64,000 nt of DNA from a virus: positions 11,611 through 75,610 of IMG/VR virus record IMGVR_UViG_3300025131_009354; one strand, 5' to 3'. The notes beneath the pieces are model-generated. The model saw only the letters and a list, made by a program, of their open reading frames with translations. It did no database searches and was not told the origin of the DNA. The translations under genes and the position numbers were made by a program. Positions 18,163-42,199 of the stretch are shown in pieces; the first letter of the stretch is position 1; the number at the start of each line of letters is the position of its first letter.

Positions 18163-18906
18163 ATGAAGCTTGATCTTAACTTCCTTAAAAATATGATATT
18201 GGAAGAACGACAAAGCCGCAAAAAGCAGTATCTACGAGAAGGGGTTTTTGGAGATTACTCTAAAGGGCGCTCCGATCGCGGCATGACTCCTGCTGATATT
18301 GATGCTCGAATTGCAGCAGTCCAATCCAAGCTAGGAATAGAAACCGGCAACGTAGGAAAACCACAAGATGTTAAAACTTTTGGGGGATCCGGCACCGCAC
18401 CTATTCCAGGTGAAGCAACCACTACCATGGCTCCTGCTGCTGGTAACGCCGCACGGGACGCAACAAAAGACCTAATTAATAAATTTACTACCGCAGAGAA
18501 AAAAGAAGCCGCGGCGGATAGTATAATAATTCTTATTGCGACGCCTCCTTTTGGAAATGTCAAAGCCGGGGAAAAGATAGAAAATATAATTTTAAAAGAT
18601 TTCGAAAACTTTGGATCAATTCTTACGGGGCCAGGAGGATTTGGTGCCGAGGGCGTCAAGGCACTTGGACACAACTACGCGCTAACAAACGTAATAAATA
18701 CAATTTTCCCAGCAGGCTTTGGAACTACTCTCAACGATGAACAAGAGGAATCTTATACAATGCTCTTAGACATTGTCCGAGAACTGCTCGGACAGGACAA
18801 AGTGCAGGAGTTAGAAGATGAGATGGGGGTTAAGCCATTGGCTGCATTGCCTCCAGAATCTGCCGGCACTTCGCCCACGGACACAATGATAGGAGCATAT
18901 GACTAA
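18163..18906 (+). CDS. putative virion-internal protein with MKL..LK..I.EE leader
   Basis: MKLDLNFLKNMILEE...YLRE; preceded by ACTATTTAT (18119-27). Confidence 0.55.
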   Translation: MKLDLNFLKNMILEERQSRKKQYLREGVFGDYSKGRSDRGMTPADIDARIAAVQSKLGIETGNVGKPQDVKTFGGSGTAPIPGEATTTMAPAAGNAARDATKDLINKFTTAEKKEAAADSIIILIATPPFGNVKAGEKIENIILKDFENFGSILTGPGGFGAEGVKALGHNYALTNVINTIFPAGFGTTLNDEQEESYTMLLDIVRELLGQDKVQELEDEMGVKPLAALPPESAGTSPTDTMIGAYD

Positions 18907-19055
18907 TGATTACTAAAACTCCTATTTGGAATATCGTCCGGCAAGAACTAAGAGAAGCCGCTAGATCAACGAAAATTGTAAACCTTATAATAGAAAGAAT
19001 CAAGGAGACACCGCAAGATGAAGCTGACAATGAGCCAACTAAAAAAGATCGTTAG
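18906..19055 (+). CDS. small leader-motif protein (49 aa)
   Basis: hand translation MITKTPIWNIVRQELRE... Confidence 0.4.
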   Translation: MITKTPIWNIVRQELREAARSTKIVNLIIERIKETPQDEADNEPTKKDR

Positions 19056-19218
19056 CGAAGTCTTGGCAGAAGCTGCGCCTGACGGCTATATACAAAAGAA
19101 ATATAGGAAATCTTTTAAACGGATGATAGCCAAAGCCGGCAGCGGCGGGAATAAAAATACACCGCCCTTTACTAAAAAAGCAAAGCTCGGCAAATCAGGA
19201 ACTTCAGGGAACCCATAG
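19018..19218 (+). CDS. small basic protein with MKLT..QLKKI..E leader
   Basis: MKLTMSQLKKIVSEVLAE. Confidence 0.55.
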   Translation: MKLTMSQLKKIVSEVLAEAAPDGYIQKKYRKSFKRMIAKAGSGGNKNTPPFTKKAKLGKSGTSGNP

Positions 19219-19988
19219 TGAAAAAATTAATAACAGAGTGGAGAAGGTTTATAAAAGAAGGTGTCGTAATTAACATCCCTGATACCTTTGTTCCCCACTC
19301 CGAACTCAATCAGGATTTCTGGAATCAACCCGGAGAAAAGCTCGATCCGAAGATCCGATTACAACTCCTGAAAATTGCTCAGGACTTCATTGATAACAGT
19401 CAAGGATCTGACGCTCCTTTAAAGGACATCACGTTTACAGGATCACTTGCGAACTTTAATTACTCTCCCTTCTCTGATGTGGATCTTCATGTTCTTTTCG
19501 ATTTTTCTGAGATAAATGACGATGAAGAATTAGTCCGTGAATATTTTCAGGCTGCCAAAGCTGTCTGGAATTTTACCCACGACATTCGCATGAAAGGCTA
19601 TGAGGTTGAGATCTACGGGCAACACTCTAAAGATCCTCACGTAGCTTCTGGACTTTATTCAGTCCTCAACGATGAGTGGATTGTGAAACCTGACCAGAAA
19701 GATCCTCAAATCGACTTTAAAGATATTAAAGTAAAGGCTGATTCTTTGGAAGATCAGATTGATAGAGTTGTAGGACTTTATGACGAAGGCAAATATCAAG
19801 AAGCTATTGACCGTGCAGACAAACTGAAAGAGAAGATTAGAAAACTCCGCAAAACAGGACTCGATAGTGTGGGAGAGTACTCAGTTGAGAATCTCGCATT
19901 CAAAACGCTACGACGAAACGGATATCTCGGCAAATTGTCTGATGCTAAGACAGATGCTTATGATAAACTCATGTCCGTCGAGGACTAA
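19218..19988 (+). CDS. DNA polymerase beta-superfamily nucleotidyltransferase with leader peptide
   Basis: FTGSLANFNY..SDVDLHV (GS...DxD), VEIYGQ; N-terminal MKKLITEWRRFIKE. Confidence 0.78.
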   Translation: MKKLITEWRRFIKEGVVINIPDTFVPHSELNQDFWNQPGEKLDPKIRLQLLKIAQDFIDNSQGSDAPLKDITFTGSLANFNYSPFSDVDLHVLFDFSEINDDEELVREYFQAAKAVWNFTHDIRMKGYEVEIYGQHSKDPHVASGLYSVLNDEWIVKPDQKDPQIDFKDIKVKADSLEDQIDRVVGLYDEGKYQEAIDRADKLKEKIRKLRKTGLDSVGEYSVENLAFKTLRRNGYLGKLSDAKTDAYDKLMSVED

Positions 19989-20012
19989 CTCAAATAAGGA
20001 ACTATTTATAGC

Positions 20013-20324
20013 ATGAAGCTTACACGCGACATTATCAGAAACCTCATCGAAGAAGAGGTTAAACTTCTTTCTGAAGCTGTCTTCGGTGCCCAGTCCAATA
20101 TGACTGGACAAGAGAGAGAAAAAGAAAGCCTGATTGCTCAAGCTCAAGCATATCAACTTGCAATGACACCTGAAGCTTTGGAAAAACAATGGGCCGAGGC
20201 AGAAAAAGCTGGAGTGGCTCCTGAGAGTAAGAATGCGTGGATTAAGGAAAGAAAAAAACACCTTGACGACGCCTGGGCTTCGGTCAATGCAGATGCTACT
20301 CGGCTATCGGGAGGTCAGCCATAA
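20013..20324 (+). CDS. putative virion-internal protein with leader
   Basis: MKLTRDIIRNLIEEEVKLLSE; ACTATTTAT at 20001-09. Confidence 0.55.
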   Translation: MKLTRDIIRNLIEEEVKLLSEAVFGAQSNMTGQEREKESLIAQAQAYQLAMTPEALEKQWAEAEKAGVAPESKNAWIKERKKHLDDAWASVNADATRLSGGQP

Positions 20325-36952: not shown

Positions 36953-37435
36953 ATGGCTGAACAAAATTTTCAAAATATTCAAAGGGCACTCGACCAAGCT
37001 CCTTCTGTCGTGGGTGCAGGGTCTGCAAGATTTCCCTTATCCGTTAGTCTGAGCGGCTCACCAGTACCCGTTGGGACAAGCGAGACTTTAATTCACACCT
37101 TTCCGGTTAATACTAATGCCATGGAAGAATTATATGTGTATGCCTACAATTATTCCACTTCGGATTACAATTTGTCAATGTCATTTGCTACTGATTCCTC
37201 AGATGCTTTCGTAATAAACAATATTATAACGCCGGTATCGTCTATGACTGGGCTTACTTTATGTTATCCAGGGATCCCCCACAAAAGCACAGACATATCT
37301 AGCCCTTTAAAAGTATTTGTCAAAACCAAAGATAACGCTTCGGCTATAAGTGTCCTCGGTTATGTGATCCGATACTACCCTGTTGATAACGGCGGTAATA
37401 CCCAGGCAACGACCTACGGATATAGTACAGAATGA
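36953..37435 (+). CDS. putative virion structural protein
   Basis: beta-rich; LSGS, TLIHT, EELYVYAYN, ISVLGYV. Confidence 0.55.
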   Translation: MAEQNFQNIQRALDQAPSVVGAGSARFPLSVSLSGSPVPVGTSETLIHTFPVNTNAMEELYVYAYNYSTSDYNLSMSFATDSSDAFVINNIITPVSSMTGLTLCYPGIPHKSTDISSPLKVFVKTKDNASAISVLGYVIRYYPVDNGGNTQATTYGYSTE

Positions 37436-37785
37436 GAGACCCTATCCCGCGGAGAATGCTGGGGCCGATCACAAAAGAGATGGGCGGGGATCAAGTACCA
37501 TCCGGTTCTAGTGGTGGCGGCGGTGGCGGCGTAACAATCACAAACAATATCAACGGCTATATATTAAGGGCTACTGGTGATGCGAATAGGGTAGAGGGTA
37601 TTCCACAACTTCAATATGATTCTAGCCGCGCTACCTTGACTGCCAGCGCTGGTATATACATTTCCGGTTCAAATGACCCAGGAGATAACTATTTATATCT
37701 ACATGGAACTGATAGTACCGGCGCAAAAAAGCAGTTTAAGATTGAGATAAGCGGGTCTATGTTTAAAGTCATATCTCAAGCCTAG
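37432..37785 (+). CDS. putative virion structural protein
   Basis: Gly run, SGS motifs; C-terminus resembles that of 31610-32992. Confidence 0.5.
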   Translation: MRDPIPRRMLGPITKEMGGDQVPSGSSGGGGGGVTITNNINGYILRATGDANRVEGIPQLQYDSSRATLTASAGIYISGSNDPGDNYLYLHGTDSTGAKKQFKIEISGSMFKVISQA

Positions 37786-37794
37786 GAGAAAAAG

Positions 37795-38034
37795 ATGTGG
37801 AATTCTATTACTAAAAGGTTCATTCTTAATGAGGATGTCAAAGTTGATCCACTTGCCTCTGTTCAGGCATTATACGATATAATTACGAATGTTAAAGTGT
37901 CAACTCAGAGGGACAACAAAAGAATACACGTAGCCAAAGAGCATGTAAGAAATATTAAAAGACAACTTCGAAGTCTTAACGAAAAAGTTTCGAAGCTTGA
38001 AGAAGAGCTTAGTCTACTAAACGAGGAAAAATAA
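37795..38034 (+). CDS. small coiled-coil protein with (I/L)xE leader
   Basis: MWNSITKRFILNE; C-terminal heptads. Confidence 0.55.
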   Translation: MWNSITKRFILNEDVKVDPLASVQALYDIITNVKVSTQRDNKRIHVAKEHVRNIKRQLRSLNEKVSKLEEELSLLNEEK

Positions 38035-41000
38035 ATGGGCGGTGTTTATGGTAAGACCGGGCATATGTCTCATTTATATGACAATCCCGATTTAACATTC
38101 CAGGAAATGAAAGAAATTCTACAAGCCGCGGCCAACGCAGACTTAGATGTAGAAGAAAAGCTAGATGGGCAAAATCTATATTTATCTTACTCAATACCAG
38201 AGGGGAAAGCCAAAGCTTCTAGGAACCTTACGCATCTTCGTAACAAGGGTGTTGATGCAATGGGATTAGCTAATAAGTTTGCTGGGCGTGGTACACTGTA
38301 TGATGCCTTTACAAATTCTTTTGATGCTTTCGAAAAAGCAGTAGAAACAATGAGCCCAGAAGCTAGAGAGAAGGTTTTTGGACCAGATACGAACTTTTGG
38401 TATAATGCAGAAGTGATGGATCCGGATAATCCAAATATTATCAACTATGATTCTAAAACACTCAAAATACACGATAAAGGTCATTATCGATTTGACAGGA
38501 AAGCAAAGGACGGAAAAGGGGACAAGATTTTTGAGGATTTCACAGAGAGGTTAGAAATCTTAGATTCGCATCTTGATAGAATACAAAAAGCCCTAGAGAA
38601 TCATGACTTTTCACTTATAAGAGACGCGGCTCTTCAATTAAAAAAGATGTCTGATGATGTTCCCTTGCGTACAGCCATTACTAAAATTAACTCTATTATC
38701 GGTAGAGAGGGACTAAATGATAACGATACTGTAGGTGATTATTTATACAAACGAGTTCACAGTGGGTTAGATACCGATCTCAATGATTTAAAAAAGGAAG
38801 AAATAACAAACTACTTGTTGAAGCTCCCAAGTAATGTGGGACTTAGGGCAATCAAAAAAGGACTATCTCCAGAAGATACGCAAGACCTAAATGCTATTAT
38901 AGCATCAAAATCCAATATACTTCAACAAGCGATTCAGCCAGTTGAAAATGTGATTCATGATTTTACTGTAGAGTTGCTAAAAGGAATGGAAAGCCGGTTT
39001 ATTCTTGATAACGATAAGGAAACCGAAAGACTTCAAAATAACTTAGCAAACGCAGTAAACGCCCTTACGGCAACAGGTTCAGAAGATCCTGCCGCCATAG
39101 AGATAATGCAAAGGCACCTAAACAAGATTAAGGACTTTGTGAATATCTCTACCCCTATTGAGGGAGTTGTTTTTGATTATAACGGGCACACTTACAAATT
39201 CACCGGTAATTTCGCCCCTCTTAACCAGATTTTAGGAATGGTTGACCCTACAAAATATAGCCGCGGCCCACAAAACCCCGAAACAAATAATGAGTCCTTA
39301 ATCTTTTCTAAAAATATTATAAAAGAAGAGGAAGAGAAAATATCTTCTGAACCTAGTAAAGCAGAACGCTTTGTGCTTTCATTGCCAAAATTTACTCCTA
39401 CAGAAGCTTGGGGTGATCCCAATTCTATGGAAAGAGAACAGATTCAAAGAATATTTGATACCGTTGGTGGTGGTGCAACTATTCAAGAAAAATTACAGTT
39501 CTTAAATGATTCTATTAACAATCCCCGAGGAGGAATCAGATCTCCTCGTAGAATTATCAGTACTCTGATTCTTCTGGAATCTATTAGGGCTGTTATTGAA
39601 TCATTTGGTGAATCGCCTGCCGGTTTTGTTTTTGAAGGTTTTATGGCCGGATTACTTCGCGGTAAGCAAGTTGCCGGCAGAACTGAAAAGGGTAATCTCC
39701 CTATTCAAGATTTAATTGCTTTCTCTGAACTTGGTGGTGGTAAAAGTGTACCAGTAAGTCTCAAATTGTTAAAGGGATTAGCTCCCGGAAAAAAAGGTAA
39801 GATAACAGATATTGAAGGAAGTTATACTAATCTCATAGATGCACTAGAAGAATTTGGACTCATGGTTTACATCGTTGGTAGAAAAGATGGTGAACAAATT
39901 GTCCTTGAGAAATTTACTTTTACTAGAGATAATTTTATGGAAGCTCTTATAAGAGGGGCTACAGGCGGATTAGTTAAAGAAGCTTATTTGTTTCAACTCC
40001 CCGGAAAAACAGTTGAACAATCTATTCGTAAACTTAAACGAACAAAAGATTGGGATACAAAATATGAACTCTTGCAAACAACTTATGGTTACGACCCTAA
40101 AGAACGGGCTCGAAAACTAAGCAACAAAGAAAAAGAAGAAGAAATAGCCATAACGGATGAGGTACCTGACGGAGAAGATATAGAAGTAGAAGTGGACTCA
40201 GAAGAGGTAAAGACTCCTGGAAATAGAAAAGATACTTCATATTCTGTAAAAGAATGTCGAAGACTTTGGAATGAAAGGCTGAACGAATCATTATTGGTCG
40301 AATCTTCCCAGCGACAATGGTCTATTAGTCCCGCCCAATTAAGAAGCATTGCTCCTATGGTTGATTATGAAAAATTAGGATCTTTACCTTATAATTCCAA
40401 TAAGATTGTACAAGTCGCTGAACAATATATGAAATACTTGTCTGATAATCTTTTGAATGTCTTTGAGGCTACTAAAGATTTGTCTGAAAATATCACGCAG
40501 TATTTTACTTTCCGAAAAAGAAGCAAAGCTATTTCATCAGGGGAAAAAGCGATTGAAGATTCTAACACGATTAGTGATGAAATGGCTCAACAATTAAGTC
40601 AAGACAAAGGTGTAAAAGAATCATTAAATAATGAGAGATCATATACACAAGGCATTAAGAACTCGGGAGACACCAATGGAAAAAAGATTGCCCTTTTCCC
40701 AGGGAAATTTAAACCACCCCATAGAGGACATTATGAGTTCGCTAAAAAAATGGCTAAAAAACTTGGAAATGAAGGAGAGGTGGTTGTTTTAATTTCTCCA
40801 TCTTCTAAGCCTGAAGTAAACCCTCAACAGTCGTTAGAAATTTGGAATCAATATCTGCAATCCGGTGATGCTCCGGATAATATCCAAGTGGAAATTGCGG
40901 ATTATCGCAGCCCAATCACCTCAGTTTATGAGTTTGTAGCTGATCCTGTCAAAGCGAGAGCCGGTGATACTATTTATTTAATCAAGAGTTCAAAAGATGT

Positions 41001-41397
41001 CGGAGATACAAGGTATAACGGGGCTCAGTCTTATGCTGAAAGAAAAAATCCTGGTGTCAATGTAGAAATAATAGAGGAAGATCCTGTGACTCGTCCTGAT
41101 GGAACCCCTTACAATGGTGAAGATGCTAGAGAAGCTATAGCCATGAATGACGCTGTCCTTTTCAATACTTTTGTACCAAAAGTTATCGATTCAGATGAAA
41201 TATGGAATATTTTTCATCCAAACGAATCATATAACGAGCACGTAGACTTTATGATAGACGAGATCTCGGCGATGGGATCCGGAGCCGTTTCTGGCGGTGG
41301 TTCTGGCTTCGGGCCACCCAATACCTATAACCCCTATACTCCCGGTAGAGTAAAAAAACCTAAAGTTAAGCGGGCAAAACGACAAAGGCGGAAGTAA
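38035..41397 (+). CDS. 1120-aa multidomain protein: ligase-like nucleotidyltransferase + restriction-endonuclease-like domain + HIGH-motif cytidylyltransferase-like domain
   Basis: EKLDGQN (KxDG) with EGVVF/YKFTG; GFVFEGFMA...D...SLKLL; FPGKFKPPHRGH. Confidence 0.7.
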   Translation: MGGVYGKTGHMSHLYDNPDLTFQEMKEILQAAANADLDVEEKLDGQNLYLSYSIPEGKAKASRNLTHLRNKGVDAMGLANKFAGRGTLYDAFTNSFDAFEKAVETMSPEAREKVFGPDTNFWYNAEVMDPDNPNIINYDSKTLKIHDKGHYRFDRKAKDGKGDKIFEDFTERLEILDSHLDRIQKALENHDFSLIRDAALQLKKMSDDVPLRTAITKINSIIGREGLNDNDTVGDYLYKRVHSGLDTDLNDLKKEEITNYLLKLPSNVGLRAIKKGLSPEDTQDLNAIIASKSNILQQAIQPVENVIHDFTVELLKGMESRFILDNDKETERLQNNLANAVNALTATGSEDPAAIEIMQRHLNKIKDFVNISTPIEGVVFDYNGHTYKFTGNFAPLNQILGMVDPTKYSRGPQNPETNNESLIFSKNIIKEEEEKISSEPSKAERFVLSLPKFTPTEAWGDPNSMEREQIQRIFDTVGGGATIQEKLQFLNDSINNPRGGIRSPRRIISTLILLESIRAVIESFGESPAGFVFEGFMAGLLRGKQVAGRTEKGNLPIQDLIAFSELGGGKSVPVSLKLLKGLAPGKKGKITDIEGSYTNLIDALEEFGLMVYIVGRKDGEQIVLEKFTFTRDNFMEALIRGATGGLVKEAYLFQLPGKTVEQSIRKLKRTKDWDTKYELLQTTYGYDPKERARKLSNKEKEEEIAITDEVPDGEDIEVEVDSEEVKTPGNRKDTSYSVKECRRLWNERLNESLLVESSQRQWSISPAQLRSIAPMVDYEKLGSLPYNSNKIVQVAEQYMKYLSDNLLNVFEATKDLSENITQYFTFRKRSKAISSGEKAIEDSNTISDEMAQQLSQDKGVKESLNNERSYTQGIKNSGDTNGKKIALFPGKFKPPHRGHYEFAKKMAKKLGNEGEVVVLISPSSKPEVNPQQSLEIWNQYLQSGDAPDNIQVEIADYRSPITSVYEFVADPVKARAGDTIYLIKSSKDVGDTRYNGAQSYAERKNPGVNVEIIEEDPVTRPDGTPYNGEDAREAIAMNDAVLFNTFVPKVIDSDEIWNIFHPNESYNEHVDFMIDEISAMGSGAVSGGGSGFGPPNTYNPYTPGRVKKPKVKRAKRQRRK

Positions 41398-41407
41398 TTA
41401 TAATACT

Positions 41408-42199
41408 ATGAAAAATATAGATAGACAACAAATGATAGCCGAACAAGTAATTCGCGAACACGTTCGTAAAAGAATTAAAAATAAGATCCTAGAACAAAGA
41501 CAGAATGAAGGTAAGCTTCGAAAAGTAATTCGTCGGATGATACTTGAAACGGAAACAGGCACAGAAGAGCCAAATAGCTTTACTGGAATAAATGTGCTAG
41601 CTGATTTATTAAAAAGCATCGTACCTGTTCTGGGAGATGGTTACAAAATGCTTACTACTTCAGAAGCGCAGAGGCAGTCATTTAGGACTCATATAATCCA
41701 CGCTGTTAAGAATACTTTACGTCCGATTGAAGTTAATAAAGACGCAGAAGACGTCCAAGAACGCTTTGAGTATGAAATTGATGCCGATATCCTTTTAGAA
41801 AAAGTAGCTATGGTTGTTGATGATGAGGCAGCCGAATCCGTCGAAGGTGAGTTCATCGATATCGAGGACTCCGCACCAGTAGAAGATGAGTTTGTAAGAG
41901 TTGACGATCAAAATGAAACAGGTCGCAACTTTGCTGCGGAAACATTTAAAAAAATAGAAAAACAAATAGTAGACGCCTATGACCTATTGGCGGACGATGA
42001 AGACCGTAATATGTTTTATGAGTACCTGCTTACGAATCTTCTCCTCTATTTTGATAAGTTTGAAGATGAGTTGGCCAATGAGCTTCCAGATGTTTCTACC
42101 AAGGAATATGAAGAAGAGAAGCATGACACTGCATCTGCCGGCAGCGAATTCGCACCCGACGCCCCAGCCGGCGAAGCAGATCTCGGCTTAGAACTTTAA
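41408..42199 (+). CDS. acidic putative virion protein with leader motif
   Basis: EQVIREHVRKRI...EGKLRKVIRRMILE; very acidic C-terminus. Confidence 0.6.
   Translation: MKNIDRQQMIAEQVIREHVRKRIKNKILEQRQNEGKLRKVIRRMILETETGTEEPNSFTGINVLADLLKSIVPVLGDGYKMLTTSEAQRQSFRTHIIHAVKNTLRPIEVNKDAEDVQERFEYEIDADILLEKVAMVVDDEAAESVEGEFIDIEDSAPVEDEFVRVDDQNETGRNFAAETFKKIEKQIVDAYDLLADDEDRNMFYEYLLTNLLLYFDKFEDELANELPDVSTKEYEEEKHDTASAGSEFAPDAPAGEADLGLEL

Follow-up and report, generated by a model that had tools for sequence, protein, structure and literature searches.

T4-type phages load their heads with cargo proteins that carry short leaders ending in [LI]xE and are trimmed by the prohead protease gp21, as described for the packaged ADP-ribosyltransferase Alt and the internal proteins IPI-III; Alt is cut at both termini, at ITE-6 and LTE-619 (PMC5694885, PMC9026906). 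In T4, a 10-residue capsid-targeting sequence (CTS) suffices for head loading, leader positions 8 and 10 govern processing (PMC9026906, PMC5694885), and the known enzyme cargo (Alt, IPI) is ejected into the host, where it acts (PMC9026906). Many head proteins of the giant phages phiKZ, 201phi2-1 and SPN3US are also cut after Glu, at several sites and by a gp21-related protease, with propeptides that can be long (PMC5694885, PMC9026906). The proteases of these phages prefer (S/A/G)xE, and the proteins that they cut are mostly without assigned function, except for the virion RNA polymerase. Here we analyse an open reading frame (ORF) of 1120 residues, P0001, which occupies positions 38035-41397 on the plus strand of a 64,000-nucleotide stretch of DNA (the window) from a 75.6-kb viral contig with an estimated completeness of 37%. 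We consider it reasonably likely that P0001 is a modular T4-like cargo protein that would be cut by a gp21-type protease and would probably be packaged and ejected. As with Alt and IPI-III, relatives of this phage encode a gp21 homologue, the neighbouring genes and the standalone counterparts of its modules have [LI]xE leaders, and the C-terminal tail follows an [LI]xE, recalling the C-terminal trimming of Alt. Unlike those single-function proteins, P0001, which is known from sequence, gathers several predicted enzymes in one chain, with internal candidate cut sites and no N-terminal leader; unlike phiKZ, 201phi2-1 and SPN3US, its relatives are ~190-kb T4-like phages with L or I at P3.

Conserved candidate cleavage sites

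The reading frame is open throughout (1120 open codons, internal stops 0), and about 50 full-length homologues of 1060-1180 residues share its uninterrupted architecture at 48-88% identity. The features of the three enzyme-like parts that an earlier reading of the letters without database searches (hereafter the sequence-only reading) had seen in this ORF are present. That reading had also noticed protease-type sites in the linkers between the N-terminal (N), middle (M) and C-terminal (C) modules. Three of them, IIKE431, LLVE756 and MIDE1076, are indeed conserved [LI]xE sites, whereas VKESLNNE does not conform to this pattern. The motif is kept at E431, E756 and E1076 in 92%, 100% and 92%, respectively, of 50 full-length homologues, with a flank identity of only 0.34-0.42 (0.39 in linker 1); [LI]xE thus persists while the neighbouring residues change. 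The segments carrying the sites have a predicted local distance difference test score (pLDDT) below 50, as at residues 406-425 of linker 1. At E756, every one of the 50 fused homologues (100%) has L-x-E-(A/G/S), as do nearly all of 33 standalone relatives of the M module, within a loop that varies in length and sequence. [LI]xE is also frequent elsewhere in the family: 56 of 62 distinct N-C proteins have it among the 20 residues that precede the first C-module strand (composition-preserving shuffles, mean 22, maximum 38; other 20-residue windows of the same proteins, 18%), and among 71 standalone M proteins that are extended at the N-terminus 49 have it in their first 16 residues (shuffles, mean 19, maximum 31; background ORFs, 20%).

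The most telling result concerns the start of the ligase-like module. P0001 begins with MGGVYGKTGHM, a segment that belongs to the ligase-like fold, and the N-C forms begin with MGG..GHM. In relatives of the form found in Microcystis phage Mel-JY01 (n=304) the ligase-like module is placed after other domains, and 49 of 52 distinct upstream contexts have [LI]xE directly before GGA(Y/A)GHMNHPFDD, with Met in 2; the junctions of this reversed order (slash, candidate cut) read LLIE/GG, ILLE/GG, LLFE/GG and the like. LLxE is not part of the fold, because the proteins that start MGG and are devoid of it are conserved. With [LI]xE/GG in the reversed forms and MGG in the N-C forms, the same GG..GHM N-terminus would therefore arise in two ways, through initiation in the one case and through cleavage behind [LI]xE in the other.

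From these comparisons, the processing of P0001 as a polyprotein by a protease appears well supported. The sequence-only reading had proposed a precursor cut into ligase, nuclease and NMNAT/CoaD-like units; its processing finds strong comparative support, but the predicted cuts differ, since E756 lies inside the acidic loop of the nuclease-like module, not at a domain border, and the M/C junction of P0001 is devoid of a site. Domain shuffling among homologues agrees with processing in that the modules are met as separate genes with leaders, as fusions and in the opposite order, with [LI]xE conserved in the variable linkers.

The best surviving alternative, which we nonetheless regard as unlikely, is that P0001 works in the cytoplasm as an ordinary multi-domain enzyme and undergoes neither cutting nor packaging. 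The [LI]xE motifs would then be features of structure or linker in Glu-rich spacers, and the fusions would reflect a shared pathway, such as nucleotide or cofactor metabolism or RNA repair in replication. In its favour, P0001 has no N-terminal leader; the genes around it are phage genes for PhoH, an exonuclease, glycosyltransferases and tRNAs, not head genes; acidic linkers raise the chance of meeting the motif, as shuffles still give 22/62; and the automatic annotation of the Joint Genome Institute (JGI) simply names the homologues phosphopantetheine adenylyltransferase (PPAT) or nicotinamide mononucleotide adenylyltransferase (NMNAT). On the other hand, the 56 proteins observed exceed even the shuffle maximum of 38, the sites fall in predicted disordered segments whose other residues are variable, LLxE before GG..GHM is dispensable in the MGG-starting forms, and the modules that exist as separate genes carry T4-type leaders.

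Table 1. Features of P0001 and of its two flanking genes in the window (slash, candidate cut).
Feature	Positions	Strand	Residues	Description
u79	37795..38034	+	79	coiled-coil gene; leader-like N-terminus MWNSITKRFILNE; abuts main ORF
N module	38035..39249	+	1-405	predicted ligase-fold covalent nucleotidyltransferase; long helical insert at ~169-365
Linker 1	39250..39369	+	406-445	predicted disordered; conserved ES(L/V) motif; candidate cut IIKE431/E, E431 codon 39325-39327
M1	39370..40155	+	446-707	putative PD-(D/E)xK-type core; E534, D559, S575-L-K577
Acidic loop	40156..40314	+	708-760	variable, disordered (pLDDT <50); candidate cut LLVE756/S, E756 codon 40300-40302
M2	40303..40629	+	757-865	two strands and long helical hairpin; packs on M1 as one unit in model
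M/C linker	40630..40680	+	866-882	repeats ES(L/V) of linker 1; without [LI]xE in P0001
C module	40681..41262	+	883-1076	predicted HIGH-family nucleotidyltransferase; H896-R-G-H899 intact
C-terminal tail	41263..41397	+	1077-1120 and stop	follows candidate site MIDE1076/I
D gene	41408..42199	+	263	acidic protein; leader MKNIDRQQMIAE

The predicted ligase-fold N module

Checked domain by domain, the ligase fold is recovered from AlphaFold2 (AF2) models and VIA-align, and the HIGH family from profile comparisons. Motif I of the N module reads E41-K42-L-D44-G45 (EEKLDGQN, a KxDG motif), motif IV corresponds to E376 (EGVVF) and motif V to K388 (YKFTG); all are invariant in 32 homologues, and KxDG is also seen in the reversed-order relatives. 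These are the residues from which a ligase-like enzyme had been called in the sequence-only reading. Also invariant are Y123-N-A-E126 (motif III-like) and K144-I-H146, whose equivalence to motifs III/IIIa of ligases is taken from their order along the sequence only. The AF2 model (pLDDT 72) ranks RNA ligases first in Foldseek, weakly (E 0.1-0.4), and in VIA-align its best match is NgrRnl (Z 7.3 over 179 residues), with T4 Rnl2 at Z 6.3 and Rnl3, Trl1, the African swine fever virus ligase, T4 Rnl1, REL1 and LIG1 among the further ligases. The best 35 rows are all ligases (Z 3.9-7.3, ~145-213 residues), the next, unrelated row having Z 3.7, and a wide VIA search likewise gives ligases. Pfam returned no ligase family at E up to 1 for any of 32 members.

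At the superfamily level, a ligase-fold enzyme is thus the supported prediction for this module. It lies outside all named Rnl families (Rnl1-Rnl5) because it has no sequence-family match and carries an internal helical insert as accessory element. With the ATP-dependent RNA ligases (NgrRnl/Rnl5, T4 Rnl2, T4 Rnl1, archaeal Rnl3 and the Trl1 ligase domain) it shares the predicted fold (Z 5.4-7.3, ~175-185 residues) and a KxDG motif I followed by candidate motifs III, IV and V in canonical order. Unlike them, it has neither that sequence-family match nor an oligonucleotide-binding (OB), Rnl1-C, Rnl2-C or Rnl5-N accessory domain, and ~200 helical residues are inserted between motifs IIIa and IV. 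Its invariant GG..GHM.H start is not a known ligase feature.

The putative restriction-nuclease-like M module

The restriction-endonuclease-like nature attributed to the middle of the protein in the sequence-only reading is supported, as a putative assignment, at the superfamily level. GFVFEG (E534), PIQD (D559) and SLK (S575, K577) are invariant in 34 fused and standalone homologues. Ser575 stands where the second acidic residue of PD-(D/E)xK enzymes is expected, the remaining E534, D559 and K577 being invariant; Ser in this position occurs in some restriction enzymes. The AF2 model of the module has pLDDT 84 and a predicted template modelling score of 0.77. A wide VIA search with it returned helical-hairpin look-alikes only, the hairpin having swamped the search, and a second look gave ThaI (Z 7.0, root-mean-square deviation 3.7, 155 residues), Eco15I-N (6.5), NhoI (6.2), NaeI (5.9), PvuII (5.6) and Hjc (5.3), with a lowest Z of 5.1. 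Type II restriction enzymes and Hjc are the only alpha/beta matches, and the restriction-enzyme alignments cover residues 34-357 of the model. Foldseek matches are weak (E 0.2-0.9), an Atlas lead points to RE_Eco47II (0.85), and searches of Pfam and PHROGs gave nothing for the N, M or D modules. A PD-(D/E)xK-like fold is therefore our supported, if putative, assignment at the superfamily level. The putative alpha/beta core and the invariant E...D...(S)xK resemble those of type II PD-(D/E)xK enzymes (ThaI, NhoI/Eco15I-N, NaeI, PvuII), from which the module differs in similarity (Z <=7.0), in the Ser that replaces the second acidic residue, in the added acidic loop and helical hairpin, and in having no partner methyltransferase. 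If confirmed, a new branch of ligase-fold enzymes and this restriction-like module with its acidic loop would constitute two protein families without a Pfam model.

The HIGH-family C module

The stretch FPGKFKPPH896RGH899 matches Pfam PF01467 (CTP_transf_like) over residues 887-927 with 22.9 bits against a cut-off of 21, in agreement with the HIGH nucleotidyltransferase of the sequence-only reading, and the same family is matched in 31 of 32 homologues. A family profile of the C module retrieved only HIGH enzymes from the PDB (38 matches of 38), the best being NadD (1yul, E 1.3e-4) with PPAT scoring similarly, and hhalign relates the module to an 'NMNAT' protein of Flavobacterium phage immuto (probability 96.4, E 1.4e-9). 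The second nucleotide-binding motif reads YNGEDAREAI in P0001 (Y1026-NGEDA-R1032); the family consensus, YSARDMRKAI, aligns with FSATDIRKS of immuto, and P0001 keeps only the Tyr and the Arg. These profile matches support, at the superfamily level, a predicted NMNAT/PPAT-like nucleotidyltransferase of the HIGH family. Like NadD, archaeal NMNAT and CoaD, the module would be a Rossmann-type HIGH enzyme with HxGH, and most of its relatives have an ISxTxxR-like second motif; unlike these enzymes, it is part of a separate phage clade marked by F-K-P-P-H, matches them mainly over the first 40-60 residues, and has the divergent second motif in P0001.

The immuto protein (L086:4158-6881, 907 residues, annotated NMNAT/NadR) has its HIGH domain of the F-K-P-P-H clade at residues 292-466, flanked by ~290 and ~440 residues without assignment. 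In cyanophages, a virion-associated 'cytidylyltransferase' of S-CREM2 was found by mass spectrometry (PMC10665884), and its homology to the C module could not be established; a 'cytidyltransferase-like' protein of S-PM2 is a weak structural lead only.

Family architecture and phage context

A word-indexed search of 5.8 billion proteins gave 290 significant matches, and among the 120 of these that were listed many are forms of ~640-710 residues. The homologues of P0001 are all metagenomic, many of them marine, and some come from contigs as long as 287 kb. Most relatives consist of the N and C modules only, the N-C pair being nearly universal across 80 IMG/VR loci; the order of the two domains is inverted in the Mel-JY01 protein (WWT39297). 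A relative of 655 residues matches P0001 over residues 1-455 and 881-1120 (57% identity), so residues ~436-870 of P0001 constitute an insert in a two-domain N-C protein. An exhaustive HMMER search in which only the insert served as query gave 512 cluster representatives, and many of these are standalone proteins of 420-570 residues with an N-terminal extra of ~45 residues. In a complete 191-kb relative the N-C protein is without the insert and the M module is a separate gene elsewhere, starting MKYNDWLAEE, while two other complete relatives have no M module at all. We suggest from these alignments that, in the lineage of P0001, the N-C linker took up a complete restriction-endonuclease-like protein. 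The linker start (N/K)-E-S-(L/V) is seen on both sides of the insert (window positions 39250-39330 and 40630-40680), which points to a duplication of the N-C linker when the M gene was inserted.

Two side observations concern the same module. A gene for a GroEL-like chaperonin (L087:1-1398, minus strand) adjoins the standalone M gene of the complete 191-kb relative. In two loci (L090:1090-3837, from LR756508, a 484-kb phage, and L067:9968-12313) a ParB/sulfiredoxin-like module with DGHHRW replaces the restriction-like insert, matching Pfam ParB_N with E 4e-4, below the cut-off.

The T4-like marine phage whose genome carries P0001 is uncultured. A megablast comparison of the region with cultured phages gave 0 matches, and tblastn matched only Mel-JY01 and two megaphages; the classical cyanomyophages are therefore without a homologue at the sequence level. 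Our literature search did not find a paper on the family.

A T4 gp21-type protease (PF03420, Peptidase_S77) was found above the cut-off, with E 1e-30 to 1e-34, in all 4 of the relatives whose completeness reaches 98% or more, each of which carries the P0001 gene family. Its closest cultured homologues are those of Flavobacterium phage immuto (52%) and Mel-JY01 (50%), with 2627 T4-like records in all. The head genes adjoining the protease in these relatives start with leaders of the ...IIKE type. Leaders are also present in the standalone M proteins, in the reversed-order Mel-JY01 form and in the genes that flank P0001; the leader that the sequence-only reading had attributed to both flanking genes is recognisable in the N-termini at 37795 and 41408 (Table 1).

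Proposed processing and function

We propose that the core of the family is a ligase-fold, lysine-nucleotidylating enzyme fused, in either order, to a HIGH NMNAT/PPAT-like transferase. Into the N-C linker of this core, which would have been duplicated in the process, a restriction-like protein, elsewhere a separate leader-bearing gene, would have been inserted. A gp21-type prohead protease would then cut P0001 after E431, E756 and E1076, leaving four products. The first would be the ligase-like enzyme, whose GG..GHM N-terminus becomes free once Met is removed. The second would be the nuclease-like module with a nick in the acidic loop, the third the other nuclease piece, to which the HIGH enzyme remains attached, and the fourth a detached, Gly-rich, polybasic tail of ~44 residues. 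M2 and the HIGH domain would probably stay joined because P0001 has no site between the nuclease-like module and the HIGH domain.

Cutting by the prohead protease, as with T4 Alt and the internal proteins, would imply that P0001 is inside the prohead and thus probably ejected with the DNA. Since P0001 has no N-terminal leader, its targeting may depend on the C-terminal tail or on its partners u79 and D, which bear leaders; D is covalently fused to the protein in other phages. The job of the enzymes is the weakest step of the proposal. That a nuclease-like or ParB-like module recurs beside the core of ligase-like and HIGH enzymes hints at the processing of nucleic-acid ends, and it can be speculated that the products act in end processing or repair early in infection, the ligase-like enzyme sealing, the nuclease-like module cutting or binding, and the HIGH module transferring nucleotides or making dinucleotides.

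Several points weigh against this proposal. The gp21-family protease gene is absent from the window's own record, which is 37% complete, and packaging, cleavage and ejection are inferred for this phage and for all its relatives. An N-terminal CTS is the only proven targeting signal in T4, and P0001 has no N-terminal leader of this capsid-targeting type (~10-20 residues). At the M/C border most homologues have VITE or a similar site, which is missing from P0001 and its closest relatives (P0001 to P0009). The structure matches are modest (Z 5-7.3; Foldseek E >0.09), the C module of P0001 has a divergent second nucleotide-binding motif, and the conservation counts come from mutually related homologues, so that their independence is overstated. 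Nor did a late-promoter test give a clear signal: TATAAATA is not enriched on the plus strand, and CTATTTAT, which is enriched (10 versus 4.1 expected) and lies ~100 nt before u79, was found upstream in only 26 of 72 related loci and was not found beside the protease genes of the relatives. Overall, the interpretation of the sequence-only reading is partly supported.

A second alternative, to which we give less credit than to the cytoplasmic enzyme, accepts that P0001 is loaded and cut and has it act in the capsid or on the packaged genome instead of in the next host cell (processing or protecting DNA ends, in DNA modification or as an accessory of the core or scaffold), after which it would be degraded or retained and not ejected as an anti-defence kit. 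The polybasic tail and the very acidic D protein do resemble core or scaffold components, direct fusion to D replaces the tail in other phages, and nuclease-like and ParB-like modules recur in the family; the T4 enzyme cargo, Alt and IPI, is nonetheless ejected and acts in the host (PMC9026906). That the long ORF is an artefact of assembly or gene calling that joins separate genes is hardly credible, for although its modules exist as separate genes elsewhere, the about 50 homologues with the same uninterrupted architecture are independent metagenomic sequences.

Returning to the reading of P0001 as an ejected cargo protein, it is tempting, if tentative, to extend it to a plug-and-play cassette of head cargo in marine and freshwater T4-like phages, in which the core would gain the nuclease, the ParB-like module or D by fusion and the protease would separate them again, fusion and fission being interchangeable ways of loading one set of injected enzymes. 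In this view the protease may also activate the ligase-like enzyme in a zymogen-like manner, by exposing the invariant Gly-Gly N-terminus. Confirmation that P0001 is cut and injected would carry the T4 paradigm of injected, protease-trimmed head proteins beyond single small effectors to polyproteins of several enzymes. The putative polyproteins belong to an abundant group of uncultured aquatic phages, with hundreds of contigs in marine and freshwater metagenomes. For the cultured phage Mel-JY01, the proposal predicts a cut at IIAE/GG and a mature ligase-like fragment starting with GGLGGHM, with a first peptide that opens with GGLGGHMNHPFDD. Injected enzymes that process nucleic acids would be plausible counter-defence tools, and their loading signals could serve protein delivery by phage.

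C-terminal tail and neighbouring genes

The tail of P0001 is made of the motif (M/I)S-x-M-x-GG-x-V-x-G, a Gly/Pro-rich spacer and a polybasic end. Its motif occurs in 43 of 72 distinct family members and is preceded by [LI]x in 36. In its longer form, [LI]xE-(M/I)-S-x-M-x-G-G-x-V-x-G-(Y/F), it follows the HIGH domain (window positions 41263-41330) in all branches and with any type of tail; this linear motif could be a docking or targeting signal. The N-C proteins (loci L002-L081) have three mutually exclusive endings: polybasic (...KRAKRQRRR), of the (V/I)LNYLL type, or fusion to D. Polybasic tails are found only where D is a separate gene, the D-fused forms being without them, a pattern that fits, short of proof, an interaction between the tail and D.

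In 22 of the 80 loci the N-C protein carries the D protein as a C-terminal fusion, and in most others D is encoded directly downstream. By BLASTP D aligns to residues 734-962 of a fused protein of 1000 residues in locus L081 (39% identity, E 7e-43), from an internal MHTIDRKKFIEE, and Pfam and PHROG gave no family match. We considered D as a gp22 scaffold and rejected this, since a separate scaffold-like gene stands beside the protease, ~70 kb away in the complete relatives.

On the other side of P0001, a homologue of u79 lies directly upstream (0-3 nt) of most family members in which it was detected among the 80 related loci. In the window, u79 and P0001 are in the same frame, with TAA and then ATG between them (positions 38032-38037). 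Read-through from u79 into P0001 as a conserved mechanism was rejected, as the spacing varies among the relatives, and the junction looks like one of translational coupling. Just upstream, an ORF of 117 residues (window positions 37432-37785) without a family match has a Gly run and an ITKEMGGDQV stretch that is faintly like the motif after the C domain. Farther upstream (window positions 18163-20324), four consecutive ORFs have similar leaders (MKLDLNFLKNMILEE, MKLTMSQLKKIVSE, MKKLITEWRRFIKE and MKLTRDIIRNLIEEE) and resemble, by these N-termini, a T4-style cluster of internal proteins.

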